Shown: positions 15,319 through 35,930 of the stretch, piece by piece
Layout: every line of letters begins with the position of its first letter
Position numbering within the stretch: position 1 is the first letter of the stretch
Program-made: the position numbers and the translations under genes
Origin: Ramazzottius varieornatus
Lineage: Eukaryota > Animalia > Tardigrada
DNA length: 64,000 nucleotides
Assembly: GCA_001949185.1 (NCBI GenBank)
Contig: BDGG01000001.1
Coordinates: forward strand, 248,001 to 312,000
Reading direction: 5' to 3'
Notes under the pieces: generated by a model
Database searches by the model: none
What the model was told of the DNA's origin: nothing
Seen by the model: the letters and a program-made list of their open reading frames with translations, nothing else

Positions 15319-15625
15319 CGTCGTGGCTGGTCCTTTCCCTACCCTGCAAAATCAAACAGCACAAAGGAGACAGACAGAATCCCAAGGTGTGAGATGGTGA
15401 TGATCGAAGGACAAAGTAAATGTTTTGCGATCGTCGCAGAGTCAGACTCATATAGAGATTACAGAACGAGAGAAACTCCAAACCCCTCAAACTCACTTCT
15501 TACTTCGCGATGTCCGATTGATTGTTGATGGACTGGCAGATCCATAGAACTGATCAACAATCAAGCGAACGCGCCGAAATGAAAGGGGATTTGAGGGGCG
15601 TCATTGTTTATCTGATTATCAGATC

Positions 15626-16737: not shown

Positions 16738-17681
16738 TCAAAATTCATATACGTCATCATACGCGTCCTTAAGCCAAAAGAATTCGTCATCGATAGACCA
16801 TACTTCTGCAGTATCAGCTGTCTTTGCCGGCAAATATATCAATACTACGTTGGCCGCAGCTGAGCCTGAGTATGTCTGCAAAGCATGCTGCGATGGTTGC
16901 TTTTTTTTAAATGACTTAAGTTTTCTTCTCAAACACTGGCAGCAAAGTTATCCGGGTGGAAACTTGGACTCGAGTTCTAAACTACAGTCACGGTCACGAG
17001 TCATCGTACGACTATGGTCTTCATTTGATTGCCCGTAGTTTGTGGGATCTTCGAACAGGAAGATGGTCCGCACTTGCTTTGCATACTGCCAAACGTTAAA
17101 GCCACTCTCCTTCTCCTCGCAGTACTGTCGCAGGAACGGTGCCGACTCTCGCGAAATTTCAGCCTTCCAAGTGCTGCTTACCCTAAAATCACTGAACGAT
17201 ACTGAGATGCTCACCCACACCTTGCCGTTTTCCGTCATCTGATTGCTGGTACTTTAGCACGATAACCTTACCGTCGCATTTTGAGCAGCTTGATGAAATC
17301 AATGGAGTGCAGGATTTCTTCGAGCAGGGCTGCGAGAATATCCTGCAACTTGGCCGAAGCCATAGCGGCGAGGTGCGTCTCTTGACATTCAACCAGTCCG
17401 GGTGCGTCTCTCACCTCCAACGACATGCGTCCGAGATACGGGGCAAATATATTCATCCGAGCGGCCATTCTCCTTCAAGATACAGTAAGCAAGTCGATAA
17501 AGTCGTTCAACAATTGGTTTTCCCTCTCCCTCCACAATTGTAGGATTTTCGGCTCGTGGTATCGCACAACCAGCATCGCAGAATCATCTGGACACCACTG
17601 GTTTTGACGTACCACATACTGCGACGTTACGGAGGATCTTTCGAACGACAAAGGCCGAGAGTCGGTCGTCGCAAGTCGCAA
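16738..17681 (-). pseudogene. Decayed ORF of unknown function
   Basis: ORF pieces 17475-17681 and 17268-17468 are in frame, as are 16948-17238 and 16738-16932, separated by stops and a frameshift. No recognised domain. Confidence 0.35.
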
Positions 17682-18024
17682 CAGGTATTTTAAAGATATT
17701 AATATTTACAATTTGCAACTGGACTGAATAACCTCACCTGTTGAATTTGTTGAACGACTTTATCGACTTGCTTACTGTATCTTGAAGGAGAATGGCCGCT
17801 CGGATGAATATATTTGCCCCGTATCTCGGACGCATGTCGTTGGAGGTGAGAGACGCACCCGGACTGGTTGAATGTCAAGAGACGCACCTCGCCGCTATGG
17901 CTTCGGCCAAGCTGCAGGATATTCTCGCAGCCCTGCTCGAAGAAATCCTGCACTCCATTGATTTCATCAAGCTGCTCAAAATGCGACGGTAAGGTTATCG
18001 TGCTAAAGTACCAGCAATCAGATG
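17236..18024. repeat. 278-bp near-perfect inverted duplication (17236-17513 vs 17747-18024)
   Basis: Direct sequence comparison. It explains the identical ORFs at 17268-17468(-) and 17792-17992(+). Confidence 0.95.
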
Positions 18025-18185
18025 CTAAAGTACCAGCAATGAATTTGACAGAATGTTAAAGACATTCATCAAGGGTACTGTAAACTTTCACTGTTATATC
18101 GATGGATCCAGTAACTACTGCAGTAACTACTGCAGTCGGACTACGAGCAACATTCTCAACTGAGCGACCCTCCGATCGAATCTGA

Positions 18186-18240
18186 GAACGTCCAGTGGCT
18201 GTATGTGGCCTGTGCCTTTGGGCGGTATCGTATTTCCCGC
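18186..18240 (-). pseudogene. Tiny pogo/Tigger (DDE_1) transposase-like fragment
   Basis: TIPPKGTGHIQPLDV matches the DDE_1 motif PPxxTxxxQPLDV. Confidence 0.45.
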
Positions 18241-19543
18241 CAGGTCGATCTGGACGTCTAAGTACAAGATCAAGCCTGAGACATGCTTTAAAATAGCGAT
18301 ATAACGGTGAAAGTTTACAGTACCCTTGATGAATGTCTTTAACATTCTGTTAAATTCGCTCGGAGGGTCGCTTAGTTGAAAATATTGCTCGTAGTCCGAC
18401 TGCAGTAGTTTCAAAATGCTGAAGGGATTAACTGGATCCATGGTGCTATCGGAAGGAGAAGAAGAGGAGAAAGGGATTCTCAAAAACAGAAGTGATGAGC
18501 TTGCATGCTGAAGCACGATGTAGCTGTGTCAATCAACAAAGAATCAACCACATGGAAATCAAACCGCTTGATTGACTAACTATGTACCGCCCAGATTTTG
18601 ACGTCCCTTCCGGTTCCTGTATAGGCTTCCAGGATTTCATTCGCCAGTCTACGCCAGTTTCAGATGATGGAGCAGACTCTTCTCTACCATTCTATCATAC
18701 CAGAATATTTCGGGAAGGCGGAGGACAGGCATAATCCCCTCGTCAGCCGTCAAACCACCCCTCGTCCACCGGTAATGGACTGTCACGTAATGTGACATGC
18801 ATTACTGTACTGTATTGAAGAAAAAGGGAAAGCGCGCCGGAAGTCAATGGTGCATGCACTATTAAGATAACAGGGCGCATTACCAGTGGAACAGAATGCA
18901 CAGCTAGCGCTCACACAAAGCCACACTATACCGAGGTGCATCCTCACGCACCTGCATACCTACAATGTGCAAGTGTGTCTGTGACCATTTGCATTATTTT
19001 TGTTCTGGACTTTCTTCTGATTTTCGTGATTTTCTGGACGTTCTTTTCTGCTTTGAAGTAGCGTGGGTTGCTTGTTAGCCTGTAGACGTGGACAACAGGT
19101 CTCTGGGAGTAAGTTCTGACCTTCCTGGGGAAAGCTGACCGCTGGCTATCGAGGAAACTGCTGACCAGTTCAGTCACCGTACTGCGATATTCCATTCAAC
19201 TTTACCGTCTTCTTTGATGCTTCCAAGCTTTGCCCTAACTTCCACAAGCTCCTCAAAGCTTCTACCAAGATTATTGGACGGAATCCGAGTCGGTGGTGGA
19301 TGTCTGACGGTGGATAAGTCATCCGTCGAGGTGAGAGTGTTCACTTCGATAACTTTCCGTGTCGCGCAGTCACATGAGCTATATTTCAAAAATTTGCGCG
19401 AGTTGATCAGGGCTGACCAATTGTCGTTTGCTGTATCCACTCAGAGCGGCGCACTTTATACAGCGATATACTGATATAGTGCGCGAGTTTTAAACAAGTG
19501 TTTGCTTGCTTTTAGTTGCAGGTTGTCGCGTTCCGAATCCAAA

Positions 19544-20447
19544 ATGCTGCTACTGTACGCTCTGTTGTTGGTGTTCTTCGCTGGAACCGAACAGGCCTGT
19601 CCGCTCAAGTGTTCCTGTCAACTGGAGGCGGTGATTGACTGCCGTGACATGGCCTTGACAAGCTTGGGCGGGGAGGATGGAGTGATTGACGGGAGTATCC
19701 GAACGGTAAGTTTGCGAACTGACCTGACCTGACCTGACTTGACTTGACATACGTGACAAGACACCCAAAATTGTAATGTTTCTAACTTTAACGTTCTCAC
19801 TGGATAAAGCTGGATGGTATGTGGTGACAAACCATTTACAGATGTTCACAATGTGTATTTTAAATTCCAATAGTTGTAATCATTTTCAGATCCTGGCTCG
19901 TGACAACTCGCTTCGCCACGTGAGCGTGTCTTTGCTGTTGATGTCCTACCCGAAATTGAAGCTGCTAGTTCTAACCACTAATGCCGACCTGGAGTGTCCA
20001 TCGCAGCAGCCGGAAGTTGCCATTGTGGGATGCTTGTACAGTAGCACCAACGTCGCTCAAACTACAACCGCCGCACCAACAACTCGCTCAACCACCTCCA
20101 TCAAGACTAATGCAATAAATCCATACATCAATGAAAGCGGTGTGGATAATGTCAGCCAAGCCTCCGAAGCTCCTCAAAGTATTTTTCGTTTTCTCAAACG
20201 TTTTTAAGTATTTTCGATGCGGTTTTTTGTAATTTTAGATCCAACGTGGAAGGTCACGGTATATGTGGCAGTGGGAGTTGTGGCAAGCGTGATCTTTGTT
20301 GCGGCTTTTGTCGGTGCAGTGTACTTCGCTTGTCGAAAGTTTCGCAAGGACCAGCCACTGGAATTTTACAGTCCCCGTAGTCTCGTTAACCCGAATGCTG
20401 TTTACGCGTCGCGCCTTGACGAGACTGACTCGATTGAGTCGGAATAG
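19544..20447 (+). CDS. Intact 3-exon type I membrane protein: signal peptide, LRRNT cap, short LRR-like region, Thr-rich stalk, TM helix, short tail (~219 aa)
   Basis: Exons 19544-19705, 19890-20178 and 20239-20447 are in frame with GT-AG introns. CPLKCSCQLEAVIDC is an LRRNT motif. TM is VTVYVAVGVVASVIFVAAFVGAVYFAC followed by RKFRK. Confidence 0.8.
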
Positions 20448-21957
20448 TGTGCTGACCTGGACGTTTACTCATCTATTGCAGAGGTTTTTGGTAGCTTCTT
20501 TCCCAGACAGATCTGTACAGTCCTTCAGATTTCGCTTGTTTACAGATGCTTCTGACGTCTGATGTGGATTTTACTTGAGAAGTTTATGTACTTTTAGCAT
20601 TCTTTTGTTGAAACGGTGAACAGTGAGAATTCATGTGAAATAAAACGTGTCAACTGCCGGATATTTACCGTGGAGTGATAACAAGTGACAAAAGTCTGGT
20701 TAGTTGCCGTGAGCCTTTGTGCCGATGGGATGACAGGCTGAGATTTCTGTGCAAACAAGATCATTAACACGTTCATGACCTATGGGCGGTGTCGAATCAC
20801 CTGTCGTGAGCGCTATGATAATGAGTCGACAGGTCGTAATTTCTGTGAGAACAATTTCATCAACAGGTTCATGACCTGAGCTGGAATATGGTCGGCACAA
20901 GGATGGAATAAAAGCACCACCCCGACGGCGTCGTAAAACAAAGATGGAATATTTCAAGTAGTCAACACTCGAAATCGGTCACACCCACCTTCCCGAGTCA
21001 AGCAATCATATAAAAGAGCTCCAACTCTGGAATATTTCTTATCAGTTTGATTTTCCGGCATGTCTGTCGTTGCTTTGAACGTTTCAGTCAAAGTTCGGAT
21101 TTCCAGCCTTGGCAAAGCAAACGAAGTGTAGGGTTTTTTACGTGATCGCTGCAAGCTCTGTTACCGCTTCTTTTACCAAGCTCCTCGCTTCTTAGTTTGC
21201 CAGATTTCTCATTTCCTCGTTACTGACGAACCATCCGTTGTGCTTTTCCAAATCCGTGTAAAGCCAGCTCCTGCCCTTCATCCCCGTCCGATCCTCGACA
21301 CGTTCCGATCTTTTCGTCGCATCGACCAAACGCTGACCGACCGCGGCGTTATCTCCCCCTTTACCTTCGCTACAGTCCGATAAAACTCATCATGGCCCAA
21401 ACCTACAACGCGATTGCAGTCTACAATCCGGAGCAGCCACAAGTCGACCGACTAAAGCTCTGCGACACACGGAACGTCTTGTTCACGGTAAGTGCTGCCA
21501 CCTGCTAACTTTACGGTACTATTGTAGGAATTTTCGACGAATAATTGGATTCGGACCAGACTATGTCCAATTTACTTTACCAAGTTTAAGCGTTCATCAA
21601 TGAACCATCCACTTTTTGATCGACTCATAAACTCGTACTAGACGGGGCGTATAAAATGGACATGAACTGGGCTGTTGCAGAAAATTTTTGCTGACTTTCG
21701 GATTGCGCATAATTTGATACTATTTGTTCCTTGAACAGCCGAAAAACTTTTCAGCTGTAACGAGCGCACTGTACTATCCTCGTGGCATTACGTATCATTT
21801 TTAGCTAAAAGATTGTGCGGGCGGTTTCTCCTACTAGAACGAGCAGTTCGTTTTCGACTTCCGCCGATAATCTGAGAGGAAGAATGGCTATGTTGCATGG
21901 TCGGGGGAAGAAGCCCTGCGTATAAGTCTATCCGACTTTGACAACTTTGTCGGATGG

Positions 21958-22551
21958 ATGCAGGGTTTGATGGCACAGCTCAAGTTGGGGGAGAGCCGGG
22001 GTAGACGTCTTCACTATTTGTGTGAAGCCGGGAACGCCGAAACTGACATAGATGGGCGGGGAAACGTCAGGTTCACCAAGCAGGGTTTTAAGGTGACATC
22101 CTTCGAGCTAGACATGCACCAAATGGGCGCCTTCATGGCAGGCATCATAGAACGGCGAGATTTCTCCGAGAGCACCCAGGGATCGCTCTCGCCACACCGC
22201 GTCTGGAAGCGGGAACGTGACTTTTTCAATCAGCAGCAGGGGTTCAATCAGCCTCAACAGCGAAATTTTAACCAGCAGCTGCAGCAGGTCAATTACCAGC
22301 CTACACAACAGACATTTAATCGGCAGCCGGGAAATGATGAACGTGAACCGCCATGTGTTGGACGTCAAGTGGTGCAAACATACAACCAAACCCAGGGGTT
22401 CATTCAACAGCATGGGCAGGGGTTCCCGGCCCCGCCGATGCTTCCCCCAATTCTTTTCTGCAGTCGCAAGGAAGACCAGCGGGACAAGAAGACCGACATG
22501 CTGATCGAAATCAAGAAAGAACCGCTTGAAATCGAGAACATCAGCCCGTAA
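21958..22551 (+). CDS. Maverick-associated accessory ORF with Q/N-rich repeats
   Basis: 197-aa ORF with FNQQQGFNQPQQRNFNQQ repeats and a C-terminal IKKE. Same strand as, and just upstream of, the pPolB block. Confidence 0.45.
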   Translation: MQGLMAQLKLGESRGRRLHYLCEAGNAETDIDGRGNVRFTKQGFKVTSFELDMHQMGAFMAGIIERRDFSESTQGSLSPHRVWKRERDFFNQQQGFNQPQQRNFNQQLQQVNYQPTQQTFNRQPGNDEREPPCVGRQVVQTYNQTQGFIQQHGQGFPAPPMLPPILFCSRKEDQRDKKTDMLIEIKKEPLEIENISP

Positions 22552-22623
22552 GACGCTGAAGTGTTTGGACAGTGAAAATTTGGGTTTCTACCATAGTATA
22601 GAATAGCGTGTTCAAACTATACT

Positions 22624-22915
22624 ATGTCTTTCAGGCCCAATACCAGCAAGCCCCAGCCTCCACCCGCTACCGCCAATGCTAATGGCATAGGGGATAAGAA
22701 GTGAGTGTGACTCCATTCCATTTCGATATTAGCTACGCGCTCCAATTTCTTTTACTGTACTGCGAGCTATCTTGTAACTTCTTGTCTTCAGGTTGGTGGA
22801 CGAGTTTGAGTTGTCTGGGCCGCGACTCATCCGCACAGTTGGACCGAAGCGCAAGAACGGATTCGACAACGAGAACGCGGAAGTCAAGATTACGGCCAAG
22901 AAGACGAAGAAGTAA
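22624..22915 (+). CDS. Small spliced basic ORF (~66 aa) whose stop overlaps the probable pPolB start (TAATG)
   Basis: ATG at 22624, intron 22701-22791 (gtgagt...ttcag), in-frame exon 2 ending KITAKKTKK*. Confidence 0.45.
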
Positions 22916-24990
22916 TGGCGCGTCCATTTGTTTTTGCTCCTACTCGCCATTCTTATTATCGAGTCATTCAGCCTTTTACTATCAACCATTATGAGTACTT
23001 TAACACGAGTGATAGAACTGCTTATCCCTAATAATATTCTAAGCCTCGCCGACTACGATTTTGTTCTGGAGCAAGTCTTTACTCAGTTCTTGAACGACAT
23101 GATTACGAAATTCCAAATCTGCGTCAATGATCGTTTGCGACTTGTGTTCAAACATCCTCAAATGCTGAACTCATCCGTATCAATGCCTTTAGCCTACAGA
23201 CGGCAGCTCAGCGCACGGGGACTGTTGAACTTTATCGAAAGCCTCCTCCGAAGTGGGGAAAGTTTTTGGATATTTGATGGGGAAATGGTTGTGAACTTGA
23301 CCTTGTTCAGGAACCCGGAAGGTTCAGGGTCGGCTTCTCGGGTAAATGCTCCGCAGCAGTTTAGATCAGCAGAGCGAAAGAGCCTGTCGCATGCGATTGT
23401 GTCCATCCAACCTAGCATGTGGGATCCAGACAATAATCTGTGTTGCGCTCGTTCGATAGTCGTGAGCCTTTCGAAGATAGAGGACACGCTGGCAGAATAC
23501 CATGCAGTTCGGGACTCGAGAATGAAGTTGCAATGCGAGCGCGCCAGGCAGCTTCATCTCAGATGAGGGTGTTCCCTTTGGGCCGTGTGGTCTTCCACGG
23601 ATCGAGCTCTTCCAGAAACTACTAGCCAAACGTGTGATCCAGCTGCTGGCGTTTAATTCTAACGCCAACAGAGCTCCAATGAATAACAGTCCGCACTTCC
23701 CCAAGCTAGCAGCATTCTTGTACGATGCTGGGCACTTTGATGCGGTTACAAAGCCGCACCGTATTGTCGGCAAGGATGCTCGATGTGGAGGTACGTAAAC
23801 TAACGTTTCCGGCAAATTGAAAACTACCTTTAAAGCATTATTCAAAATTGCAATGTTCGGTCAAACCTGGGTACTGTGTAAATTTTGGTGGACGCAACTT
23901 GATTTGCGTCCATGGTTTTTATGCTCGGTCAGACCCTGGGTACCGTGAAAATTTTAGTGGACGCAGCCTGATTTGCGTCCATGAAAATTAGACCGGCCTG
24001 CGTTACATCCATAAATCCGAGGTAGTTTAACAGCCCTACATTTACGAGTTTTATACTGGTGGATTGCAGTGGGCTTCGAGTTTGTCAACAACCCAGCACA
24101 GCATGCCTGCGCCAGAGCCTGCTCTAGATGCCACCAATTTGAGTGTTCGTCCAGACAAAACCCTCAGCCGTGCACAATCACCTGCAAAGACTGCCGGAAC
24201 AAGTTTTCTGCTGAAGACTGCTACCAAAACCACCTCAGGTGTATCGTTCGATGCGACGCAAAGAAGGAAGCCAAATCAACTTGCCATGCTTACGAGCGAT
24301 GTGCAGATTGCTACAGTTTTATCAGAGCTCCCGGACGCCCAAGATCCGACCCATACGACTGCGATGCTCAATATTGCTCGGTGTGCAAGAAGTTCGTATC
24401 TCATGGTCATCGGTGCTATATGAAGACCGGCAGTGCTGCCATTCCGAAAAGAACTTTGGTGGCAACAAGCAAGAAGAGCTATGCCGCAGGAGAAGAGCAC
24501 GGAGTCGAAGATTTGGTTTTCGGAGCTGAAGACTTCTTACCAGATGGCCAAGCTCAACCACCAGCCGCTAGAACGCGAGGTAAAAAATGCCTGCTCGGTA
24601 GATTTCTAAAACCTTCCCGCTGGCCTGTGTCAATTTGATTCCACCCCGTTTAATTTCGTTATGGTTTTTTTTTCTTTCAAGGACATCATGATCAACGGAC
24701 ATTTACTTAAGATTTTGAATGTATGCTCGATCTTGCTACCGGAATGCACAGTCCCAACTGCCTCGACTTTATTTGTCTCGAAGACCCTACTATCACGGAG
24801 ACCTTCTATGGAGCAGAGTGCCACATGCAGTTTCTTGACTGGGTCTTTGAGAACTGCACCAACTGCACCTTTTTGGCGCACAATACCAGTCGGTAAGAGA
24901 CTACATTGTAAAAAGTTGTAAAATTAATGTTAAAATCTGATCTCTTATAGGTACTTATACATTTAAAATACATCTCATGTCAGCCGCCCT
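22915..24990 (+). pseudogene. Protein-primed DNA polymerase B, N-terminal half (OTU-like protease, Cys-rich region, 3'-5' exonuclease); 3 introns, frameshifts, polymerase domain deleted
   Basis: DNNLCCARSIVV, LH..GVPFGPCGLPRIELFQ and GHFDAV (OTU Cys/His); CxxC clusters; FT*DFEC (ExoI), HSPN, FYGAEC..FLDWVF and FLAHN (ExoII). Introns 23791-24069, 24580-24681 and 24893-24950. Confidence 0.88.
23853..23984 (+). repeat. Two tandem ~68-bp hairpin-containing repeats in pPolB intron 1; third copy at 32095-32170
   Basis: Shared TCGGTCA..CC(T)GGGTA...AAATTTT.GTGGACGCA.C.TGATTTGCGTCCATG, with stem TGGACGCAA/TTGCGTCCA. Confidence 0.9.
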
Positions 24991-25499
24991 GAAAACGGCC
25001 CCTTATTGTCGGCCATTTATTTTAGCGAAGTACCATCAGTGCACTACTGAAATTTTCTGGCAACGCACTTCTGATAAATAATTTGTTGGACCCGAGCATT
25101 TTCTCGTTTCCGCACTGGTCGACGATTGTGTTGAGCTGGAAAATTTACGTTGCAGTGAAGCATTTGGTTTTGTCGACGAAGATTCTGAAGATTTTGTACA
25201 CGATAAGACTTTTGCATTTCCTGAATAAGATGCAGCAGAATAATGGCCGATCTTTTGGGAAAGTCAAGTAACATTGTGTTTTGGACGTTATACCATGCTT
25301 TACCTTTTTTCTTGTCGCATGCCGTGCGAATCGCTGTAGGCGCCAGTGGATACTTCCCTAATAAAATAACCGTACAAGCAGCTGCATCAAGTCTTCTAAA
25401 TTGGGCCGTCTCGTCAGCGCCTAACATTGTCAGCGATCTTTTTACAAGTGGCGATGCTCGCGAAACCTTGACAACTTCTACGGAAACAAAACCTCCGGA

Positions 25500-26066
25500 A
25501 TGGAAACAAAATTAAACGGCACTATTTCACATCCAGCAACAGTACTATTGTCAGGGATGAGCGGTAGTGGTAAGACCACCTTCATGCAACGACTTCTGCT
25601 ACGCGATAAAATAAAGCCTAATCCTACGCGTATTGCTTGGTTATACGCGCAATGGCAACCAATTTATGATGCGCTGACCAATGCCGCACTACCAATCGAG
25701 TTTCTTGAGGGTATCCCCGCAGCATTATTTATTCATGGGAGCAGTCATCGAAACTTATCGATATTTTATCTGATTCATAACATTTTTTGGAAGAGTAGAG
25801 TGGCGAGGGAGATTAGGCTGAATGCCAAGTACATTATTGTGTTCCGTGGAGCCTCCGACTCTGAGCCTCTGCTTCGTCTTGGGCACCAGCTCTTCCCTCG
25901 TCGACCTAAATATTTTGAAGAGGCAGTGGACTACTGCATGGCCAAGGACAATGGATATCTCATTATCCAGCTGTACCCCAACATCGCGGACGACGAGCGC
26001 CTTATGACCGATATCTTTGGCGAAAACCCTTACAAGTCTACTGTAGTCTTCAAAGCCATCAACTAA
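25500..26066 (+). pseudogene. A32/FtsK-like DNA packaging ATPase with internal in-frame deletion
   Basis: HPATVLLSGMSGSGKT (Walker A), LFIHGSSHRNLSI, REIRLNAKYIIVF and GYLII. The Walker B segment expected between EGIP and LF..GSxHRN is missing. Confidence 0.88.
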
Positions 26067-26067
26067 A

Positions 26068-26392
26068 ATGGAAGACACATCCACCGCTAAAAGCTTAGAT
26101 CTTCTCACTGTCGCGCGGCGACGCCAATGTTTCCAAAGCTTTGCTAAAGAACGCCGATGACACGCTCGTGGACGCCATCTCGGATTGCTGTTTACAGATC
26201 GTAAATGGGACAGTAAAGATTGAGCACGAAAGCGCACGTCGCAAGCTGGAAAAGTTGCAACCTATTCTGCAGCAGCTGGCTGAGAAAAGCTACTCAAGAA
26301 AGAAAAAGCGCGAGCTGCTGTTAGGAAAGGGTCTGCGAGTCTTGGAGATTTGTCTTCCGCCTGCATTGCAGTTTTTCTTATCTCTCTTATAA
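26068..26392 (+). pseudogene. Conserved small Maverick protein (frameshifted)
   Basis: LVDAISDCCLQIVNGTV...KL...LQQLA...KKKRELLLGKG resembles the widespread Maverick ORF with IxECxxNxLxGxV...KKxxLxQxG. Confidence 0.65.
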
Positions 26393-26393
26393 C

Positions 26394-27028
26394 ATGGCTC
26401 GTCGAATGTAGTTGATAAGTGAGGAGCGGTTACGGTACCGACTTAAACAGCCGCAATAAGGTCTTTGCGCTGGCGGATGCTCACGAGCGAATGGATAACG
26501 CGGACGGTTCTACGCGGATGCCCGGCAAGTTGACGCGCATTGCACATAACAATCTGCCTGTGCAACCTAGCATAAGTAACTTGGACCGTCGAGCGGAAAC
26601 GGTACAGTAGGAAAATTTCAGAAATCACACGCCGAAAAGTTTATTCGTTTCCTATGGGAGATCGGCATGGACATTACCGACGCAATGGAGCCAGTCGTCG
26701 ACGAAACCGTGAGGACCGGAGCCAACTTGGCCGATATAATCCACTGGGTTACAAACCCCATCAACCACTCTTACGCCCCCCGCAGTTGGAATCGTTTATG
26801 AACCTGCTCGCCCGCAACTTTATGCCTGCTACCATGATACCCAACAAGGACAGACGCTCGATGTACGCCACTTTGCAGCAGGATAAAGACCTCTATGGTG
26901 AGAAACCTTCGACCAGCACTGCACAGAATCAGCCAGGAATCGGGAGCGCTTCGCAAGACACCTCATTAGACTTGGCTAATCCTATTTCGAACCAAAACGG
27001 TAGCGGTGTTAGATGGTCGTTTTATTAG
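26394..27028 (+). pseudogene. Conserved Maverick ORF (decayed)
   Basis: FMNLLARNFMPATMIPNKDRR and terminal QNGSGVRWSFY resemble the FxxxLxxxNxPxxxIxNxxR...WxxY ORF found next to the ATPase in such elements. Confidence 0.5.
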
Positions 27029-27601
27029 CTGTATAGTAGCTGTATACATTTTCAAAGAGTGCATCTCGGGTAGTCTGAGCGCATCTGCATCCACACATTT
27101 TCTAGCATTGTTGCAAAAGTGAAGATTCTCAATAGCAAACTTCCTCAATAAAGCATCGTTACTCTTCAGATTTTTTGGATACGTGAAACTAAATATAATG
27201 CGACGTAGGGCATAACCACGGCATTTGTGGTAAAGGTAATAGAGAGAAAAAAGACCACAAAGATCCGAAGATGGGTGTTGTAATTGAGTGTAGTCTTCTT
27301 TGTACTTTCCTTCGCACTGCGGTGCCATTCTCGTTATAAAGTCGTGTATCTCAGCGCCGTAAAAGATGGCTGTCTTTCCAAATGAGTCGAAGAACTCTGC
27401 TTCTTTTCCGCTTTGGATCCATACCGCCACCCAGTGCGTACCACCGTCTCGGTCACTGGCTTTAGACGTATTAATGATGACACCAAATGGGTACCGACGT
27501 TTGCGTATTTTGGCAAGATAATCCCGTGGGAAGACGCCAGCAGTTTTATCCTTCCCATGCGGATCATGATGTAGAGCATCCCACAACTCGAACGTGTTCA
27601 T
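26966..27601 (-). CDS. Adenain-like maturation cysteine protease
   Basis: GVFPRD, IINT...GTHWVAV (His), EFFDSFG (Asp) and QLQHPSSDLCGLFSLYYL (Gln/Cys). ORF uninterrupted. Confidence 0.93.
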   Translation of the reverse strand: MNTFELWDALHHDPHGKDKTAGVFPRDYLAKIRKRRYPFGVIINTSKASDRDGGTHWVAVWIQSGKEAEFFDSFGKTAIFYGAEIHDFITRMAPQCEGKYKEDYTQLQHPSSDLCGLFSLYYLYHKCRGYALRRIIFSFTYPKNLKSNDALLRKFAIENLHFCNNARKCVDADALRLPEMHSLKMYTATIQLIKRPSNTATVLVRNRISQV

Positions 27602-27606
27602 GATTC

Positions 27607-28929
27607 TCACACATGTTTATAGGGCAAGAACGGGTTTCGGCGTTGGTCAATCTCCAGAATGCTGTCTCTATACAAATGAGCGTCATGGTTCCGGGCAAGG
27701 CTGCGTGAAAACGCAAATCAAGTCCCACAACACCAGTTCGGCGTCGACTCAGACAGGACGAATGACCCAGATCGGGTTCAAAAGAGAATTCCATCAAAGC
27801 AAACCCTTCATCCCAATGGTCAGGATCAAAGAGCAGACTCGAATTTTGAAACATTAGGCCAGTGGTTTCTAGCAGAGAGAGGTATCCATCCCGTTCAAAT
27901 CCGTTTCCGGGCGTGAACTGGAGAGGGCGTGAGGGGAGGTTTTCGCCGTTAACGATAAAGCCGACCTGACTGAGGCTGACCGACTCCACCTTTAGCGGGT
28001 TTTTCTTGTAATGCCCCGCAATAGCGGCGCTGTCCACAAGGGCTAAAATTACTTTTTTAGAAATAATGCCTCTAAACAAATCATCTCTGGCAAAACTCAT
28101 GACTCCGGCGTTGATCGTCAGCTCTAGCACATTCTTTCCTTCGAAAAAGATTAAAGCGTTTCGCTTGGCCAGCAAAATTTCATGGGCAACCAGAAATTCT
28201 GGATCCATCTTTATTTTTCGTATCTTCAATTGCGCTGACGTTAAGATTAGCTTCAGTCCCAGTGCTTCCTCCTCACTCATCATGTATGATGCCGCCTTGG
28301 CACGATGCAGAATGAGCTTGATATCCATTCGGTTTCGAATGAGCAGAGGCTGTTTGGCTAGTTCACTAGGGAACCTAGAGCGTAACTTGCACGTTTGGTC
28401 CCCTTTCAGTTGGTTATACCGATTTCGCAGTCTGGAGTTGGTCATGGCCGCATTCGTCGGAGTGGTCACGGTAGTATCATGACTGCCGGCAGTGTCAAGG
28501 TGAATTCCTTGTAGTTCCAACTGCTCTTTAGAGGGTGGTCCGTAGCCCAACAACGCCTCGGCGTAATTAGCAAAGTTAGCCAGCTGCGACACCCCAGTTA
28601 CCAGCTCCCCGTTTAAATAAAATTCCTCTGTTTGCTACATGGTGCTGGCAATCGTGTTGATAGGCCCGTAGGTGACGGTGTCGGGAACTATAGAGACACC
28701 ATCGGCCTTTCGAACTTTAAAATCCGACAGAAGGTAGGAATTATGTAGGTCTACAAATTCGTCAGGGCTGCCCGTAACTTCAAAGCTGATGGATGCCATG
28801 TTTTGACTATTACCCACTGGATTTACATATATCCATTTTATCCAAATATGACTGTGTAGGGGGTACGCTATTCCTGTACTCGACAGCAGTGTTAACACAG
28901 TTCGCTGAGGCAGGATGTACTTTGGCCAT
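27607..28929 (-). pseudogene. Double jelly-roll major capsid protein (hexon-like), frameshifted
   Basis: Starts MAKVHPAS...VPPTQ; ISFEVTG..EFVDLHNSYL; YAEALLGYG; AGHYKKNP; NGENLPSRPLQ; ends DSILEIDQRRNP. Confidence 0.88.
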
Positions 28930-28931
28930 GA

Positions 28932-29448
28932 TTAGGCTGCAAAGGGGAAGAATGTTGAATGAGTTTCGCAAGTGGTACTCCACGGGCTTTCTTGTTTGTC
29001 TTTTTCTTGCGAGAGGCTTTCTTTTTGCTCGATTTGCGAGGTTTCTTCTTCGATACTGCCTTTTCCGCGACTGACTTTCGTTTGCGTTTTCGTTTGGTGA
29101 TGCCTACGACCACTGGCTTCGCCTTCTTCGCTCGACGCTTGCGTCCTGATCCGGTCTGTCGTGCGATCCCCATCAGGCCTCTGATGACGGCCTTGCCCGT
29201 ACGGTGAATAGCGCTAGCAGCAAAGTCCCGGCCACCGACCACGTCGCATAAGGCTGATTTTCCTATGTTAGCGCTGGAATCAGTGTACTTTTGACACCTC
29301 GAGCAACGGCGCCAGATAAATTTCCGAAGAATCCGTGCCCTACTTGTGCGCCAATGCCGACGAATTTTGGTACGGAGCCGCCGGTTGGCTGTAATAGCTG
29401 AACGAAAACATGTGCAGGAATGGCAGACGATTCAAAGTTACTTTCCAT
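28932..29448 (-). pseudogene. Basic DNA-condensing core protein (pVII-like)
   Basis: PKFVGIGAQVGHGFFGNL and QTGSGRKRR followed by a K/R-rich tract. Lies between penton and major capsid. Confidence 0.7.
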
Positions 29449-29450
29449 CG

Positions 29451-30146
29451 TTAGGCTCTTTTGCGAAATCTTAGTCGCACAGTTGTAATGCCGTCAGAGA
29501 AGGGAATGATCCGACCAGTACTATCGGCCAGTCCTACAATAATTTTGTCGAATGAGTTGTCTCCGATTGGGACGAATTCGGCCCTGGGTCACGCTCTCAG
29601 CGGAAACTACAGCGAGAACCTGGGCCTTTGTATTTCCCACCAGCTGAGGTCGAATCAAATTACAGTAAACATAGACTGTGTTGGTGTGGGTCGTCAGAGA
29701 AGCTTCCCGTAAGCCAAATGGCTGCTCAATACCCCACAATCGTTTCATATACGGACTGAGCTCGACTGCCATTACTGTATCGTTCGGTGCCCGTGATACT
29801 GTTCGGTCGAGTGCATTGTACTTGAAAACCTCCCAAAACCCCCCAGGTGACAATAGATTCAGTGCATTACAAAGAGCCTCAACGTCCTGATAGTAACCTT
29901 GAGGTGTGACTTTCTGGTAACTTTTGCCATCCTTCATTCGAAACACCACGTTTCGCTCATCCCCATCTTTGGGAAAGGTGGCAATGCGTTCCGGGCATTG
30001 GATAGAGACAAGACTCATCTCCCAGAGTTCACAGTCGGGGATACGAACTTCCTCCGCCAAGTCGGTGGTAAAGCAGTGGAGGTATTGTGGAAAAAATCAC
30101 GGCTGGCATCGCTTGACAAGGTGATGATAAAGTTGTTAAGCGACAT
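29451..30146 (-). pseudogene. Minor capsid protein (penton), frameshifted
   Basis: NNFIITLSSDAS, FTTDL...WEMSLVSIQCP, VYVYCNLIRPQLVGNTKAQVLAVV and GRIIPF..G.TTVRLRFRK. Confidence 0.85.
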
Positions 30147-30935
30147 TCTTGATCATGCCGTTAAACTTTCTAGTCGTTACCCACTCGTCGAATTTTTTAT
30201 CCCAGCCAACGTAATGCACCAGTACTTTTCCCGTTTTCCGGTCGAGTTCTTGGACATGAAAGAGCTCGTCTTTGGTGTAATTAACCGACTGAAGCTGTCA
30301 CGGATAAAACCGGCCCTTCACCGTGTCTCCCTTCAGATCTTTCAATAAATAAAGCACTGCTCTGTCCTCGGTGTTTTCCACAGATAAAACTCTACACTTC
30401 CGAACTCCAACCTCGCAAAAATCCCTTTTCAAAACTTTTCTTCTGCAGCGATACACGCACCAACTGCTCCGGTACAAACTTCTCCTTGGACGAACGCCGA
30501 AATGCGTAGGTGACTTTGTGAGTTCCATACACAGCATTCTTGATCTCTTCCTTGTTATTCTCGGTCACATTGTTGGGTGCAACGAAGCTCAGTGTCTTGT
30601 GTGGTGTTTCATTGTACGAGTCCACGAAACTTTGCAGGACTTCAACGTAGCGTTTGTTACCGACTAATAAAAAGTACCGATACAGCCGTTCGGTAATTGC
30701 TCGATGAAAGCGCTCGACGATCGCTGCTTTGGTCTCAGAGCCCAGTTTTGAGAAATGTTCAATATTTTTCTGACGCATATATTGCTGGAACCTGTCGTTG
30801 TAAAACTCCGTACCCTGATCACTCTGCAATACTTGAATATTTTCTCCCGATGTCTCGTACAGCTGCCTAAAGCCGGCCAAAACAGCCTCTTTTGTCTTGA
30901 TGCTGGTCGGCTGAAGATAGGCTTTTCTCGAAAAG
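30136..30935 (-). pseudogene. Retroviral-type (c-)integrase with C-terminal chromodomain, 5'-truncated
   Basis: FSRKAY, LQSDQGTEFYN (second catalytic D), KAAIVERFHR (E), YNETPH, FEKGF..GWSSE, KGRFY and chromo VLVHYVGWDKKFDEWV. Confidence 0.92.
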
Positions 30936-30974
30936 GGCTTTTACGTTTGGCACATGCAGCCATCCGTCCTTCAC

Positions 30975-31460
30975 TCTGTACGTGTAGCATTTGACGTGTT
31001 GCTCATCGAGGAAGAAACCCGCTCTGGCCAGTCCGTTGGGATCTTACACCTTCTTTCCAGGCCACATACAAAGGCTCGCAAACCGATCAGTATAGTTGCG
31101 CATATGATATTGTATACCATGTAATGGTGCGTGTAGTAGCTTAATATCCAGCGAGTCTGGTGTGTCGTACCCGATCTTCTTCTCCACGGCAAACTTCACA
31201 CCCTGCCGCATTTTGTAGACGTCCAGCGCAAACTTACATTTTTCTCGAAGGTACAGGTGCTCAGACATAGGATCATCACCATCCCGCAAACACTCGTGGA
31301 CAAGAACACCACAATAGTCATACTGTACTACGTCTTTCTTGCCTGTATAGCGTAGACCCGCCGCTGCCAACGAAATGGGACTAACATGAGTGTTTTTCCG
31401 CGTCGCAAAACTTTTCCGGCGCTCGATAAAGTCCACGTCCAGTACAGACATATATTTCAT
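30975..31460 (-). pseudogene. Inhibitor-of-apoptosis (IAP) protein with two BIR repeats, decayed
   Basis: BIR1: RRKSF...LAAAGLRYTGKKDVVQYDYCG...DGDDPMSEH....EKCKF. BIR2: RFASLCMWP...*DPNGLARAGFF....VKCYT, with an internal stop and truncation. Confidence 0.85.
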
Positions 31461-31977
31461 ACAGCCGTTGGACAGAATATGTTTGGGTGGTTGCTTGTGA
31501 CAAGCGTCTTCGACGGAGTAAAGCCGAAACTAGAGTACCACCAACTAGAAGAATGACGACCATGTTCGCACCAGCAACTTGTAGCGCAGTCCTGGTTGAA
31601 TCAACCGAACGATACTCTAGTCCTTCACCGTTGATAGTGATGAATGGTGGTTGGTTAGTACGTACACATGCTGCAAGGCGTTGAGGCGGTACAATACTGC
31701 AATTGAAATTATCGTTGCCTCGTACGTCCAGTATGTTCAGGTTGGGATAATGGTGGAGCAAGTCGGTGTAATTGATCTGGCGGAGATAATTGTAAGCGGC
31801 CAGAATATGATACACTCGCTTATCAAACGTTGCGTTTTCCAGCTTCAACGGGTGAAGACCGCGATCACGACAATCGATGACAGCCGGCGAATTTCTGCAA
31901 AAGCATCCCTCAATACAAACCGAAGCAGTTTTGAAAGATACCAGAGCGATATAGTACACAAACAAGTAATTGGCCAT
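31381..31977 (-). CDS. Intronless type I membrane protein with LRRNT cap, homolog of the gene at 19544-20447
   Basis: Signal peptide MANYLFVYYIALVSF; CIEGCFCRNSPAVIDCRDRGL; ILAAYNYLRQI..LLHHYPNLNILDVRGN..FNC; TM MVVILLVGGTLVSALL followed by RRRR. Confidence 0.78.
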   Translation of the reverse strand: MANYLFVYYIALVSFKTASVCIEGCFCRNSPAVIDCRDRGLHPLKLENATFDKRVYHILAAYNYLRQINYTDLLHHYPNLNILDVRGNDNFNCSIVPPQRLAACVRTNQPPFITINGEGLEYRSVDSTRTALQVAGANMVVILLVGGTLVSALLRRRRLSQATTQTYSVQRLYEIYVCTGRGLYRAPEKFCDAEKHSC

Positions 31978-32332
31978 CCTGACACGGGCACGTAAAGAAG
32001 TCTGTAAACCGAAAGACAAGAGACTGAAATGATCAAGTAACTTGGATTATAAACACTGAGCGACTGCCGCACCCAACGAGCAACTCTGTAACAGCTCGGT
32101 CAAAACCCTGGTATGGCGAAAATTTTAGTGGACGCAACTTGATTTGCGTCCATGATTTTATGTTTGGTCGCTGAAACGTCCCTTATCCACCAGCTACAGA
32201 GACAGAGGGAGCTCAAGCTAACAGCAGCGTAAAAGGTAGGTTTAAGTCAATCTGAGAAATCGACTTCTCACTCCAGCACAGGCGCACTAATTACCCTCCA
32301 ACAACTTCCCCAATTTAATTATATGGTACAAG

Positions 32333-33148
32333 ATGGGCGGGGTAATTGCCCGCTATCTGGCCACGTATACCGCTCAGTCCCAAGTTAAGAGCGACAAACG
32401 TACAGTCCTCCTCAACAAGCTGGTCTACGGGCATACGACGGTTGGTCCCGATGGACTGGAACATGCAGTCACTCGTCGAAGTGGCTTCTCAACGGTGCTC
32501 CAAACAATCCAAGATTGGCCTGGTGGTGTCAAGACTCTTCGAACCTGACGCCGAAGAGGCCACAAGCATCCAGTGCGCGGATACTTTCGGTAAGAGCACT
32601 GCCTATGTGGAAATTGGGAAACAAGACTTCTTTCAAGTGACAGAGGACGATCTGTTGGTCGGCGAGGCAAGCGGCAAAGTCTTTACCTCCTCCTTGGTCG
32701 ACTTGTTCATTCGCAATGCCAGTCCTCTGCCTGGAATTCTGATCTTCAATCTGTGTAATGGTATCAAGAGCTGCTACGGCCTATCTACGCTTTTGGCACA
32801 GCTTCTCAAGAGGTGAGACAGTGTCTGACACTTCTGTAAGGCTTTGTGCAACTCAGTTTGTGTTTTCGATGTAGGTTCGATCCGGACAACAAGCAAGCAC
32901 TGCAGGACGCCAAACCGGAAAACATCCGTCGTTTCGTGGCTTCGGCTCATCCAGTGGTGGCCCTTCTTCGGCATTATTATGACGAGACGATGAAAGATCA
33001 CAAGGCTAGCATGCAGAGGATCCTTTACGCCGAAGACACTGCAGGCTATGACAGTGATGGGTACCACGACTACAACTACGGTTACCCGCAACCCTGGGAG
33101 GAAGAATATCGAAGCAACTACGAGAGAGCTTTCGCTCATAAGAACTGA
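32333..33148 (+). pseudogene. Spliced accessory gene of unknown function (one frameshift)
   Basis: TATA-like sequence just upstream, MGGVIA start, frameshift near 32530, intron ~32813-32874 (gtgaga...tgtag), Tyr/acidic C-terminus. Confidence 0.45.
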
Positions 33149-33409: not shown

Positions 33410-33950
33410 TTAACCAAATAAGTTGCGCTTTCTATATGCGTTTGTATTGTACTGAGGCAGGTTACTGTGGTCACTATATTTGGCGTCGGAAAGCGGAACC
33501 GTGTCAACTGTGACACTGTTTAAGTCAGTAATGGTGGCGTGATTCAGTACATCTCGTCGTCCATGGAATACGTACACAGCTCTGCAAGAGGAACCGTCGT
33601 CATCAAATGACTTTTTGTCAAGCATTGGATGGACATATTGCGAACACAAGACCGAACACACTTGATCTACAGCGTGCCAATAATGCACTAATGTCGCTCA
33701 CGAGTGGTGGCACTGTAATGGCCGGAGTTGCTCATAAGATCATTGTTGAATAAATTGTCATAAACAAACACGTGGTTGGGGGAGGTTGCATTTGCAGCAA
33801 AAACGTCGTCATATTTTTCCGGGTTTTGCCGAAGTTCATCGACGATAGCGAACCGAACATTCACGAATTGAGACTGATCACCGTTAAAAACGAAGTATGA
33901 AATAGAGGCACTCTCCGTCTCCTGTTATGGGTATGATTTGTAGAAGGTGG
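33410..33950 (-). pseudogene. OTU-like cysteine protease domain downstream of the Helitron helicase
   Basis: LQIIPITGDGECL(Y), then after a frameshift SISYFVFNGDQSQFVNVRFAIVDELRQNPEKY. Matches the OTU N-terminal motif GDGxCLxxSxS...xRxxxxxxL..N...Y. Confidence 0.65.
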
Positions 33951-34075
33951 TCTTCCAGATATGCGGAGCGGAACGTCGGATGAGTTTGTGTTGCTTGTTC
34001 CTTTTGAACGGTTTCTTTCTGTAGTTAACGGAATGATGATCTCTTTGCAGGCTTAGTTTGATGTGGCCGCGTGAT

Positions 34076-35930
34076 TCAGGGTTTTTGCAGCAGTAATTCG
34101 GGGTAGACAATATTATCCTTAATGGGGTGTGCTTTCTCGCTGATTTTGTCCGGTTTGCATAGCGTTAAAATTGTGTCCCGTGTCTGAGTGCGGCTGGTTC
34201 CGACGTATAGCTGTCCTTGTTCAAAGGGAGGGTCTCTCAGATCAATGCCGCAGCGTTTCAACGTGTCCCCTTGCGAGCTATCGAAGGTCTTACAATACCC
34301 ACATCTTATTAAGAATTGTTTTCTGGTCATTTTGACTTTTATTCCCGGTGCGTTTAGTTGAAATGTCACTCTTGGTATTAGTACGGTTTCGCCGGTCGAT
34401 ATTAATTTTGCGGTTATGGGCTGACGTGAAATATTCTGGAGTACGATTTTTGACTTGTTAAGCAGACGATAGGTTCCGTAACAAATAGCAATGCATTCCT
34501 TCTTTCACATCGAGAGTATGAGGTGGGGTGTTTGGTTTGTGTACCGAATTAAAGAACTCGTCGCTCAAACTAAGGGCTCCCAGGTCAGTATTTTCGTCGT
34601 TGTCAAATGCATCATGATTTAACATGGTCATTAATGGGGCTGGTAGGTATGAAGTGATTGTTTTGTTTATTTCATCGACGACTAAATCCCGTACAGCCAG
34701 AATTGCGCTGTGGGCAGTGTGGGCGAATCCTTCCGTTTGTAAATTGGGATAGACAAACTGAATTAGGTCGTTAAGCTCTGTTGTGCAGTTGATTAAGTCG
34801 AGGATGACTTCTCCGTCTTCGTTTTGGTCCAAAGATCCGTCTCCAACGTCGTCCAGCATTTGTGCGTACTCAAAGTCCTGAAGTTGGCGAACGGGTATGA
34901 TGAGATTAAATTTTCAAGTTTCGGCCAAAGCGGCGAGCTTATCAAACTCGCGTTGATTGTGTCCTTAGCTGTACCGCACTGTATCACTGGGGGGATCTGA
35001 CGAAAGTCTCCGAGACATATCATCACAATTCCTGCGGCCACAGAACTATTCTGACGTATTTTTCTCAGCATCGCGACAGCGGCCTCGAAATTATGTCGAT
35101 GCATCATTGATATTTCGTCCCAGATAACCGGACGACATTCTCTTAGTAAGGCAGCTTTATCAGAGCTGGGAAGGATATCGCATCCGACGTCGCTCAGGTC
35201 TTGCAAATCGTCTCTTAAGGGAATCTTGAAAATGTTATGTGCAGTTCTTCCTTCCACTTGGGTAATTCATCGCTGCAATAGCCGAACTTGCCCATGCAAG
35301 TGCGGTCTGACCTTCCCCACGGACATAGTTCAGGAGACAATTTGACGCGTACGTCTTACCTCTGCCTGCGGGCCTGTTAAGGAAAATAAGCCCTCCTTGT
35401 TCGTCGTCCAGTTTACGTTGTATGCTGAGCACGAATTCACGTTGCTCATCGTTCAATGTTTGAGAGCGTTCCTCGAAATTTTGTGTACATTCTTGTTTAT
35501 TGTATTGCAGGCGCATGCTGTCTATCTCAGACTAGTGATCGAGAGGCTCCGGCAATCCATAATCTGCGTTGCATTTCCCCATACAATCCAACTTTCCCGA
35601 GATATGAAGTAGCGTTTCGTTCTCGGCCTGTTGTCGATGTAAAGACTTGTTGATGGGGAAATCTGCACTGAGCGATTCGAAATGTTTGTTGTATAAGTCC
35701 ACTGCGGGAGCACCTTCGTTTATCAACAGCACAAATAAACCACGCAGCTGCGACGGTGTCTCTAGGTTTTTTACCGCTTCTGCCATGCATTGATCGGCCT
35801 CTCCGTCCTTTCGAATATGACCGAGTGCGTACGCTGCTTCCGAAAATGAACCATAAATGACTCCGTCGACCGTTCTGAGATCCTCGTACGATCGCGCAGG
35901 AAAATACTCTAGCAGATGTCTAAGAGAGTA
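34076..35930 (-). mobile_element. Helitron Rep-Hel, PIF1 helicase portion (pseudogene, Rep/HUH domain absent)
   Basis: SYEDLRTVDG...FSEAAYALG, PSQLRGLF, PAGRGKT, GRTAHNIFKIP, IWDEISM, GDFRQIPPV and SQGDTL..GIDL..PPFEQGQLYVGTSR. Confidence 0.92.

Follow-up and report, generated by a model that had tools for sequence, protein, structure and literature searches.

Two mini-LRR membrane-protein genes that travel with a decayed Maverick element in a tardigrade genome

Our analysis of a 64,000-nucleotide stretch of the Ramazzottius varieornatus genome (the window) revealed two small, related genes, each encoding a predicted LRR ectodomain and a single predicted membrane helix, that both travel with a Maverick/Polinton element, now a relic. 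We favor, with a probability of about 0.6, the reading that gene A (RvY_00102) and gene B are old paralogs of a recurrent Maverick gene for host interaction that was duplicated, and that one copy of gene A was later switched on. It is likely that the element used the gene pair to alter the host cell surface, and the host may now keep one of the two, gene A.

The two genes and the element around them

Gene A is a spliced ORF of 219 aa, identical to the annotated protein P0010 (Table 1). Its splicing was read from RNA-like contigs of four runs from four studies; the RNA nature of these runs is a guess, not on record, that the splicing joints back. The two introns predicted in the earlier note are joined in all four runs, and a further intron, absent from that list, lies in the 5' UTR. 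RNA-like contigs over the 5' end start at 18810, 19007, 19022 and 19184, and RNA extends past the coding end to about 20,550-20,890. In the published expression table (PMC5034306, Supplementary Data 2), RvY_00102 has FPKM values of 24.2, 23.5, 18.6, 14.1, 16.0 and 15.5, compared with at most 0.68 for its paralogs RvY_01795 and RvY_01862 and at most 1.09 for RvY_00103-00109, the rest of the element. In that table gene A is thus the element's sole clearly expressed gene model, and it is transcribed in embryos and in active, dried and rehydrated animals. The four RNA-like runs did not cover gene B or the core, and run X23 had no cover over gene A at 80% likeness; neither observation carries weight as absence.

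Table 1. Features of the element and its two mini-LRR genes, in window coordinates
Feature	Position	Strand	Evidence or remark
Multi-copy element relic, approximate extent, ends not defined	18755..32340	.	contig depth, variant letters
Gene A, 5'-UTR exon	18810..19330	+	RNA-like contigs; start is a lower bound
Gene A, 5'-UTR intron, 185 nt, GT..AG	19331..19515	+	joined in 3 of 4 runs; also in X1
Gene A, coding exon 1, for the signal peptide and the LRRNT cap	19544..19705	+	PF01462 weak, E 0.031
Gene A, intron, 184 nt, phase 0	19706..19889	+	joined in 4 of 4 RNA-like runs
Gene A, coding exon 2, for the two LRR turns, their two-cysteine cap and the Ser/Thr-rich stalk	19890..20178	+	
Gene A, intron, 60 nt, phase 1	20179..20238	+	joined in 4 of 4 RNA-like runs
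Gene A, coding exon 3, for the TM helix, the basic stop-transfer and a short tail ending in acidic residues	20239..20447	+	
Broken polymerase-like fragments, N-terminal half	22916..24920	+	six-frame view
Packaging ATPase (A32/FtsK-type), Walker A present	25500..26066	+	E 4e-18 to L003 ATPase
Small conserved ORF after ATPase	26099..26392	+	40% over 67 aa to ATPase-adjacent ORF of L005
Adenovirus-type cysteine protease	26966..27600	-	PF00770 E 2.5e-4, score at cut-off
Probable major capsid gene, stop and frameshifts	27564..28950	-	six-frame view
Probable minor capsid gene, frameshifted	29450..30165	-	six-frame view
Retroviral-type integrase, broken	30140..30940	-	PF00665 E 9.5e-6
BIR (IAP-type) ORF directly behind gene B	31044..31460	-	PF00653 E 4.1e-10 to 5.6e-10
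Gene B, intronless mini-LRR/TM gene	31381..31977	-	198-aa ORF

The proteins share their build. Each has an N-terminal hydrophobic stretch and one TM stretch followed by basic residues, in keeping with the signal peptide, membrane helix and stop-transfer described earlier. They align with 35/96 identities (36% over 96 aa) and a score of 123, which none of 5,000 shuffles reached (maximum 56), and the match extends beyond the LRRNT cysteines: exon 2 of gene A against the part of gene B after the LRRNT scores 62, a value not reached in 20,000 shuffles (maximum 58). The fold prediction for gene A (pLDDT 78-95 by block over residues 21-100; an earlier fold from a seven-row alignment was unusable at pLDDT 42.7) shows the LRRNT cap and roughly two turns that had been read from the letters, with a cysteine-rich N-cap leading into parallel LRR turns in both the model and the fold searches. 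Its top PDB matches are extracellular LRRNT-LRR proteins, among them osteomodulin (Z 9.3, rmsd 3.3, 87 aligned), TLR9 (Z 8.9, rmsd 2.6, 91 aligned), a 119-residue GPIb chain (Z 7.6, rmsd 2.9, 83 aligned) and VLRs (Z 7.6). Like gene A, platelet GPIb-beta/GPIX and lamprey VLRs combine an LRRNT and very few turns with a stalk and a single anchor, but they have a four-cysteine LRRCT, whereas gene A has only C90 and C102 after the turns and no PF01463 match, and identity is 14-26%; these matches are tied with many LRR proteins and imply no special kinship. Matches in BFVD were confined to giant-virus LRR proteins, with E no better than 0.007, and Atlas matches were generic LRR clusters. The tails, of about 20-40 residues, contain no Pfam domain and no cytoplasmic signaling domain, so the term receptor, as used before, overstates the case for proteins with neither signaling domain nor ligand.

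How intact are the two genes? The earlier note contrasted two open ORFs with a broken core. Gene A does have an intact ORF and splice sites, against about 11 breaks in the element's 5-kb minus block, but its openness is not significant, since at the break density of that block a 657-nt ORF would stay intact with a chance of 0.24-0.35. Gene B, 59-73% identical to four homolog clusters of 173-177 aa, has in-frame deletions of three residues and of one residue relative to them, and a frameshift near 31,465 makes it read about 25 codons beyond the family's end into the next ORF; judged by its sequence, it is open in a trivial sense only. With B damaged and an open A expected about one time in four, we rejected open ORFs as a sign of selection. 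A recent retrocopy of gene A was likewise rejected as the source of gene B, given the low protein identity and the lack of any DNA similarity in a direct comparison. What survives of the proposed processed copy is an older event not leading from A to B: the B lineage probably lost an intron long ago, since the B-like exon fragments P0022 and P0023 of other assemblies break at the site of gene A's first coding intron. The BIR ORF, between gene B and the integrase, is ended by a stop where the second copy (P0013) reads through.

The element has Maverick/Polinton features: integrase, protease, ATPase, two convergent modules and dispersed copies. As had been noted, genes A and B occupy the outer ends of the two convergent blocks, and both are oriented inward. 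About 30 residues across the Walker B region of the ATPase are missing; its L003 counterpart matches PF02456 and PF04665. The ORF behind the ATPase we take to be PZ-like. The fragments at 22916-24920 presumably resemble the N-terminal half of a protein-primed family B polymerase; they match nothing in Pfam or NCBIfam, nor the L005 or L006 polymerase, and the catalytic core was not found. By position and motifs we assume a major jelly-roll capsid gene at 27564-28950, and presumably a minor one at 29450-30165; the major capsid ORF has no domain match and nothing like it in PDB sequences or phage records, and none of its three pattern matches in viral contigs was true. Gene models RvY_00108 and RvY_01868 are artificial fusions of element genes. 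Summed contig depth, which is no measure of copy number, is 28-140 inside the element with many variant letters, including across gene A and the core in DNA contigs; from 32341 on, a single 3.6-kb contig of depth 28 marks the return of single-copy sequence at about 32,340. No terminal inverted repeats were found in the window copy, the test on this relic being equaled by 50 of 300 shuffles. The left flank is rearranged, with a 278-nt perfect inverted duplication at 17236-18024. A bacterial promoter scan was set aside, the host being an animal.

The sister copies were assessed through protein records and the published table. Gene A has three paralogs at 92-95% (RvY_01795, RvY_01862 and RvY_12114), and so was rejected as a single-copy host gene. 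The intronless gene recurs as well: in a second copy of the element, RvY_01862 is accompanied by the RvY_01868 model, which comprises B, BIR and integrase, with A and B in the same order and six gene numbers apart, as in the window. The left neighbors differ, a TPR gene in the window and the reverse transcriptase RvY_01861 at the second copy. RvY_01862 is the only one of the three paralogs tied to Maverick genes; the neighbors of RvY_01795 are uninformative. The expressed copy has private changes at LRR-domain residues 58, 62, 66 and 84, one of which removes a glycosylation site that the other three copies keep.

A wider family and its closest known relatives

Both genes belong to an unnamed family that combines a mini-LRR, a stalk and a TM. 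A profile search yielded 48 matches at E<=0.001; of these, 37 are proteins with a single module from outside this genome's records. Distant members have in common a fixed two turns, a two-cysteine cap and a conserved Pro and Asn, and because this module is shared, the sequences suggest one origin rather than repeated truncation. For one distant subfamily, 150 pattern matches contained 14 true loci, with a PF03175 polymerase adjoining the gene in 5/14 and an ATPase in 4/14, the rest being short or decayed relatives at >=78% DNA identity; these 14 loci belong to one element family and count as one independent case, from one of several homolog subfamilies. Its L005 gene is intronless, encodes 245 aa with a TM and a class I PDZ end, and lies between packaging ATPase and polymerase. 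With dN/dS at 0.23-0.70 in those 13 pairs, out of 15, whose dS exceeds 0.2 (polymerase 0.13-0.19), this Maverick-borne subfamily is under purifying selection. The joint recurrence of A and B and a homolog borne by a second, unrelated Maverick support the proposal of a virus-borne module.

A class I PDZ-binding end occurs in 12/17 TM-bearing short members, representing 8/13 lineages, and in 0/24 members without a TM, against a background of at most 5.4%, a pattern noticed before it was defined. The ordinary host LRR-TM protein P0054 also ends in a PDZ-type motif. Neither window protein has one. Viral proteins such as HPV E6, adenovirus E4-ORF1 and rabies G dock on host scaffolds through a C-terminal class I PDZ motif; most TM-bearing family members have the same [ST]-x-hydrophobic end, although the proteins are unrelated.

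In the tree, A-like and B-like sequences form one side of a branch (91/92, not starred), and gene A sits on a long branch. The closest homologs of B, P0001-P0004, could be host genes, as could P0018, P0022, P0023, P0026 and P0028, which are spliced fragments of the A-like and B-like kinds. The Atlas lead for P0017 is GPIb-beta (0.90). Searches elsewhere were empty: the B alignment gave 0/168 true matches in JGI metagenomes, viral contigs gave 0/5 for P0021, 0/301 for A7, 0/103 for A8 and 0/92 for A9, P0004 had eight matches there with one chance locus (L001) and no useful context, and a word-indexed profile search returned eight proteins, none of them a new named member.

We found no description of this family in the Maverick, adintovirus or LRR literature, where supplements and Repbase entries may list such ORFs. 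As excerpted, Barreat and Katzourakis 2021 (PMC8097293) describe animal Mavericks/Polintons in which accessory regions flank two convergent core modules; like the window, these have inward-pointing modules, integrase, protease, ATPase and extra outer genes. Most copies there are degraded, and 2,166 have no discernible TIRs. Intact elements in that text have intronless core genes, whereas the window element has one spliced, expressed accessory gene; LRR, leucine and apoptosis are not mentioned there. Nematode Mavericks, in the portion of Widen et al. considered (10.1101/2022.07.12.499685), resemble the window in an intron-bearing terminal gene and an element-encoded signal-peptide/TM protein. 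Their cargo, wasp proteases and krma kinases, has large host families, whereas the window family looks element-borne, and their TM protein, MFUS-1, is an 866-aa fusogen, compared with an ectodomain of about 85 aa here; that portion mentions no LRR. Adintoviruses, in the sections used of Starrett et al. 2021 (PMC8502044), are animal Polinton-like viruses and resemble the window element in their host-derived, membrane-directed accessory genes, but PLA2X, GasderminX and the cupiennin-like genes encode membrane-lytic virion proteins; neither LRR nor apoptosis is mentioned in those sections.

Origin and present role

Based on these data, we propose the following model. Both genes would derive from one small accessory gene of Mavericks (polintoviruses). 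Its product was likely a host-cell-surface protein with one membrane helix and a stalk bearing a predicted LRR binding face of two turns; the tail of most family members is predicted to dock on host PDZ scaffolds. In an active cycle, the element would set this protein at a PDZ-organized membrane site, where the LRR face may bind one host or viral surface partner without signaling, by blocking, masking or tethering, while the accompanying BIR protein would restrain cell death. The B lineage would have kept the PDZ tail and lost an intron, the A lineage kept its introns, diverged fast and lost the tail. After insertion in the window the element decayed, and most likely a rearrangement at its left end put gene A behind a constitutive local promoter, giving transcription at all stages measured. 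The promoter idea draws on a single low-depth contig, X2 record 9: its match ends at 18933, whereas RNA contigs start at or before 18810.

What might gene A do today? At slightly below even odds, nothing: its expression would be an accident of the insertion site, and both genes would be remnants of a viral gene that was once useful. The origin we prefer can accommodate this reading, which differs only on present function and agrees with a dead element, a damaged B and sister copies near zero FPKM, although stable expression at 14-24 FPKM with precise splicing in all four RNA-like runs speaks against it. Endogenous retroviral env genes, Fv4 among them, keep related elements from entering, and gene A could by analogy have been domesticated as a constitutive tardigrade surface protein with such a role. 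Its expression, unique in the element, across life stages and studies and its survival among the breaks favor this, but an ORF of this length survives readily by chance, full length is also kept by two paralogs that are barely expressed or unmeasured, the expressed copy is the one with private LRR changes and a lost glycosylation site, and the insertion is young, its copies being 92-95% alike; we consider domestication doubtful.

Host origin is also unlikely, if a little less so: gene A would have been taken from the host, introns included, as cargo at the end of the element, B would be an older, intronless capture from the same host family, and the similar genes in other Mavericks would stem from separate captures of host LRR genes in truncated form. 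Gene A has three ordinary spliceosomal introns in a terminal region, in nematode Mavericks a terminal region of 2-5 kb holds cargo genes that have introns (10.1101/2022.07.12.499685, in part), core Maverick genes are intronless (PMC8097293, in part), and spliced A-like and B-like fragments occur in other assemblies. Against it, no host parent outside a Maverick was found, and A-like records of full length are limited to the four copies here; the one A-like copy with clear expression in the table sits inside the element, and the same fixed module unites distant members. It is very improbable that the copies stem from a segmentally duplicated host region in which a Maverick had merely inserted beside gene A: while no TIR fixes the left end and the left flank is rearranged, the left neighbors differ, single-copy sequence returns on the right, and the element harbors two genes of one rare family.

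Mavericks are virus-like, and their particles have rarely been seen in animals. With fusogen, lytic proteins and host cargo as the known accessory genes, the question addressed here is how these elements deal with the host cell, and a recurrent, selected surface protein with a predicted scaffold-binding tail beside a BIR gene points toward an infection cycle in which the host is manipulated. As a long shot, we speculate that animal polintoviruses share an ancient, PDZ-tethered surface protein, the smallest LRR module with a membrane anchor, controlling entry or immune recognition, one copy of which the tardigrade turned into a constitutive gene of its own that blocks re-infection; were the domesticated and PDZ-tethered reading true, it would be a DNA-virus counterpart of retroviral env domestication. 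The tardigrade locus, with one spliced, steadily expressed copy among near-silent sisters, is testable, and a knockout method for R. varieornatus is published (PMC11175437).

The gene pair and its history

Gene A, a spliced mini-LRR/TM gene annotated as the protein RvY_00102, and gene B, its intronless relative, part of which forms part of the artificial fusion model RvY_00108, are a pair of paralogs in the tardigrade Ramazzottius varieornatus, borne by a decayed Maverick whose two gene blocks converge. They share 35 of 96 residues with an alignment score of 123 (maximum of 5,000 shuffles, 56), and the segment behind the cysteine cap, aligned by itself, reaches 62 (maximum of 20,000 shuffles, 58), so that the homology proposed in the earlier note holds, also beyond the LRRNT cysteines. 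At the DNA level, A and B show no similarity, and on this ground and that of the protein identity we rejected B as a recent retrocopy of A.

Both introns read in A from the sequence are spliced in the contigs of all four RNA-like runs, from four studies, and a further intron in the 5'-UTR is spliced in three of them. The structure model of A, built on an alignment of 44 sequences, has high confidence in residues 21-100 and in the membrane helix. In structure searches it matches N-terminal portions of extracellular LRR proteins, the top one with Z 9.3 and rmsd 3.3 over 87 aligned residues, with many matches tied. The predicted fold agrees with the minimal architecture suggested before, in that an LRRNT cap is followed by only two turns and, further on, the membrane helix; behind the turns it has a cap with two cysteines in place of a standard LRRCT. 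The claim that both reading frames are open fails for B. Compared with four homolog clusters (173-177 aa, 59-73% identity), the window copy carries two short deletions and departs from the family frame near 31,465. Directly behind it, at the end point of a family-length B, lies a BIR/IAP-type ORF, a putative anti-apoptosis gene in a tardigrade Maverick; in a second copy, the model RvY_01868 reads on into an apparent second BIR repeat.

In three ORFs from other assemblies, an A-like first exon reads on into an intron at the same position as in A, and the B-like exon fragments P0022 and P0023 end at that position, one from each side; both observations come from proteins only. In an ectodomain tree of 44 rows, four of them half-length, a branch (91/92, not starred) separates the A-like and B-like sequences from the rest; A itself sits among the B-like ones and has a long branch. 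The simplest reading is that the ancestor was spliced and that, after a duplication, B's lineage lost its intron.

Features of the element and its flanks in the window
Feature	Position (nt)	Strand	Remarks
TPR-rich host gene	12301-15351	-	Left of element; spliced; TPR matches; presumably CTR9-like
Inverted duplications	17236-18410		Left flank; one of 278 nt, perfect, and two of 57-61 nt; recent fold-back rearrangements
Very high-copy repeat	~18,040-18,750		Beside the inverted duplications; small minus-strand ORF
Decayed Maverick	~18.8-32.3 kb		Two convergent blocks
Gene A	19544-20447	+	Introns 19706-19889 and 20179-20238
Gln-rich ORF	21871-22551	+	Open, 226 aa; between A and polymerase-like region; no family match
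62-nt palindromic repeat, two copies	23854-23984		In polymerase-like region; likely a small host insertion element
Segment differing in another copy	25044-25511		Between polymerase-like fragments and ATPase; joint 25167-25440; possibly an inversion
BIR/IAP-type ORF	31044-31460	-	Directly behind B
Gene B	31977-31381	-	Intronless
62-nt palindromic repeat, third copy	32094-32155		Just upstream of B
PIF1-type helicase	33700-36000	-	Right of element; broken; PF05970 E 3e-27; probably a Helitron relic
Integrase			PF00665 match
Adenovirus-type protease			PF00770 match

Linkage to Mavericks here and elsewhere

Besides integrase and protease, the packaging ATPase of the element was recognised by the tools, with its Walker B region missing. 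Candidates which we take to be the capsid and polymerase genes, from position and familiar motifs only, gave no match in any library searched. About 11 stops or frameshifts, counted by eye, interrupt the 5-kb minus block, and a search for terminal repeats found none. DNA contigs show variant letters over A and the core, single-copy sequence starting at ~32,340. Three paralogs of A, RvY_01795, RvY_01862 and RvY_12114, occur in this genome (92-95% identity). RvY_01868, a model fusing a second B with the BIR ORF and integrase, is 89-92% identical to the window, and the A paralog RvY_01862 lies six gene numbers from it, the same spacing as between RvY_00102 and RvY_00108. The left neighbours of these two A-containing copies differ; the gene models around RvY_01795, another A paralog, are uninformative. 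We consider it probable, at roughly 0.8-0.9, that the A and B genes originate in the element.

A profile search with A and B, run over 1.84 billion proteins, returned 48 at E<=0.001: four seed proteins or fusion models of this genome, seven longer multi-repeat LRR proteins (five judged by sequence, two by length) and 37 single-module proteins. For one subfamily, 150 pattern matches yielded DNA context at 14 loci, which all belong to one element family (~39% GC). The mini-LRR gene has no intron there, with a packaging ATPase on one side (4/14 loci) and a PF03175 polymerase on the other (5/14, by Pfam); the remaining loci are short or decayed relatives. The proposed linkage to Maverick genes stands for this subfamily; context searches for other mini-LRR subfamilies found nothing. 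This other Maverick and the window element have the ATPase and a small ORF next to it in common; we assign the former to a distant lineage because no alignment was obtained between its polymerase and the polymerase-like fragments in the window. Here a comparison with a core gene was made: dN/dS is 0.23-0.70 in 13 of 15 mini-LRR pairs and 0.13-0.19 for the polymerase, the pairs not being independent. The two remaining, near-identical mini-LRR pairs carry 2 and 9 replacements with 0 and 1 silent changes. Near the ATPase of this other Maverick, its loci L005 and L008 hold an ORF (L005 750-1178, plus strand) with an HWGR stretch, presumably like the BH1 motif of Bcl-2, and no Bcl-2 Pfam match.

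The A/B family is apparently an unnamed, recurrent accessory family of Mavericks. Mavericks are described as having accessory regions at both ends (PMC8097293), and terminal cargo genes with introns have also been reported (10.1101/2022.07.12.499685); the window element is similar in having extra genes at its outer ends, and A in being intron-bearing and terminal. Literature searches, and term searches in the text of these and other Polinton/adintovirus papers, found neither an LRR surface gene nor a tardigrade Maverick.

Expression of gene A and possible roles of the family

In the portion of Supplementary Data 2 of PMC5034306 used here, RvY_00102 reaches 24.2 and 23.5 FPKM in 2-day and 4-day embryos, 18.6 in active, 14.1 in dehydrated, and 16.0 and 15.5 in two rehydrated states. 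RvY_00103-00109 stay at or below 1.09 (RvY_00108, 0.12), and the other copies are similarly low (RvY_01795, 0.64; RvY_01862, 0.68; RvY_01868, 0.33). Expression therefore appears special to the RvY_00102 copy, a comparison that covers the paralogs RvY_01795 and RvY_01862 within 8,991 table rows. RvY_03105, with the same best integrase match as this element's, ranges from 0.8 to 6.2 FPKM in the same data. RNA contigs of A begin at 18810 or earlier, and one low-depth contig of another copy stops matching at 18933; these contig ends, the rearranged flank and the high-copy repeat give a weak hint that the A copy captured a promoter.

Retention by the host had been raised as a possibility. We regard domestication of this copy as unlikely: given how dense the breaks are locally, chance would leave A intact with a probability of 0.24-0.35, two other A copies are likewise full length, and four changes in the LRR domain are private to the expressed copy, one of them abolishing a conserved glycosylation site.

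What might the encoded protein do? Fifty proteins entered a tail screen, in which three were too short to score and six longer than 420 aa were left out of the count. In 17 of them a TM helix is followed by a tail, and 12 of the 17 have [ST]-x-[VILMF] as their last residues (8 of 13 with close relatives collapsed), a pattern that was seen before it was defined and that host LRR-TM proteins can share. At the C-terminus, this sequence is a class I PDZ-binding motif. It occurs in none of 24 proteins without a TM helix (background at most 5.4%), and the Maverick-linked L005 protein also ends in it. The tail of A has an acidic stretch instead, and B in the window has lost the motif through its frameshift. 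We propose that the family protein does no signalling of its own at the cell surface, where host PDZ scaffolds would hold it and its small LRR face would bind one partner, and that the mini-LRR and BIR genes together would form a host-interaction set; we give such a PDZ-tethered surface role even odds. Other architectures occur among the homologs. P0031, an 802-aa single ORF, joins mini-LRR, stalk and TM helix to a long tail with a histone-fold domain (PF00125 E 1.3e-16), and P0043, P0047 and P0055 form a subfamily with an amphipathic helical end in place of the TM helix.
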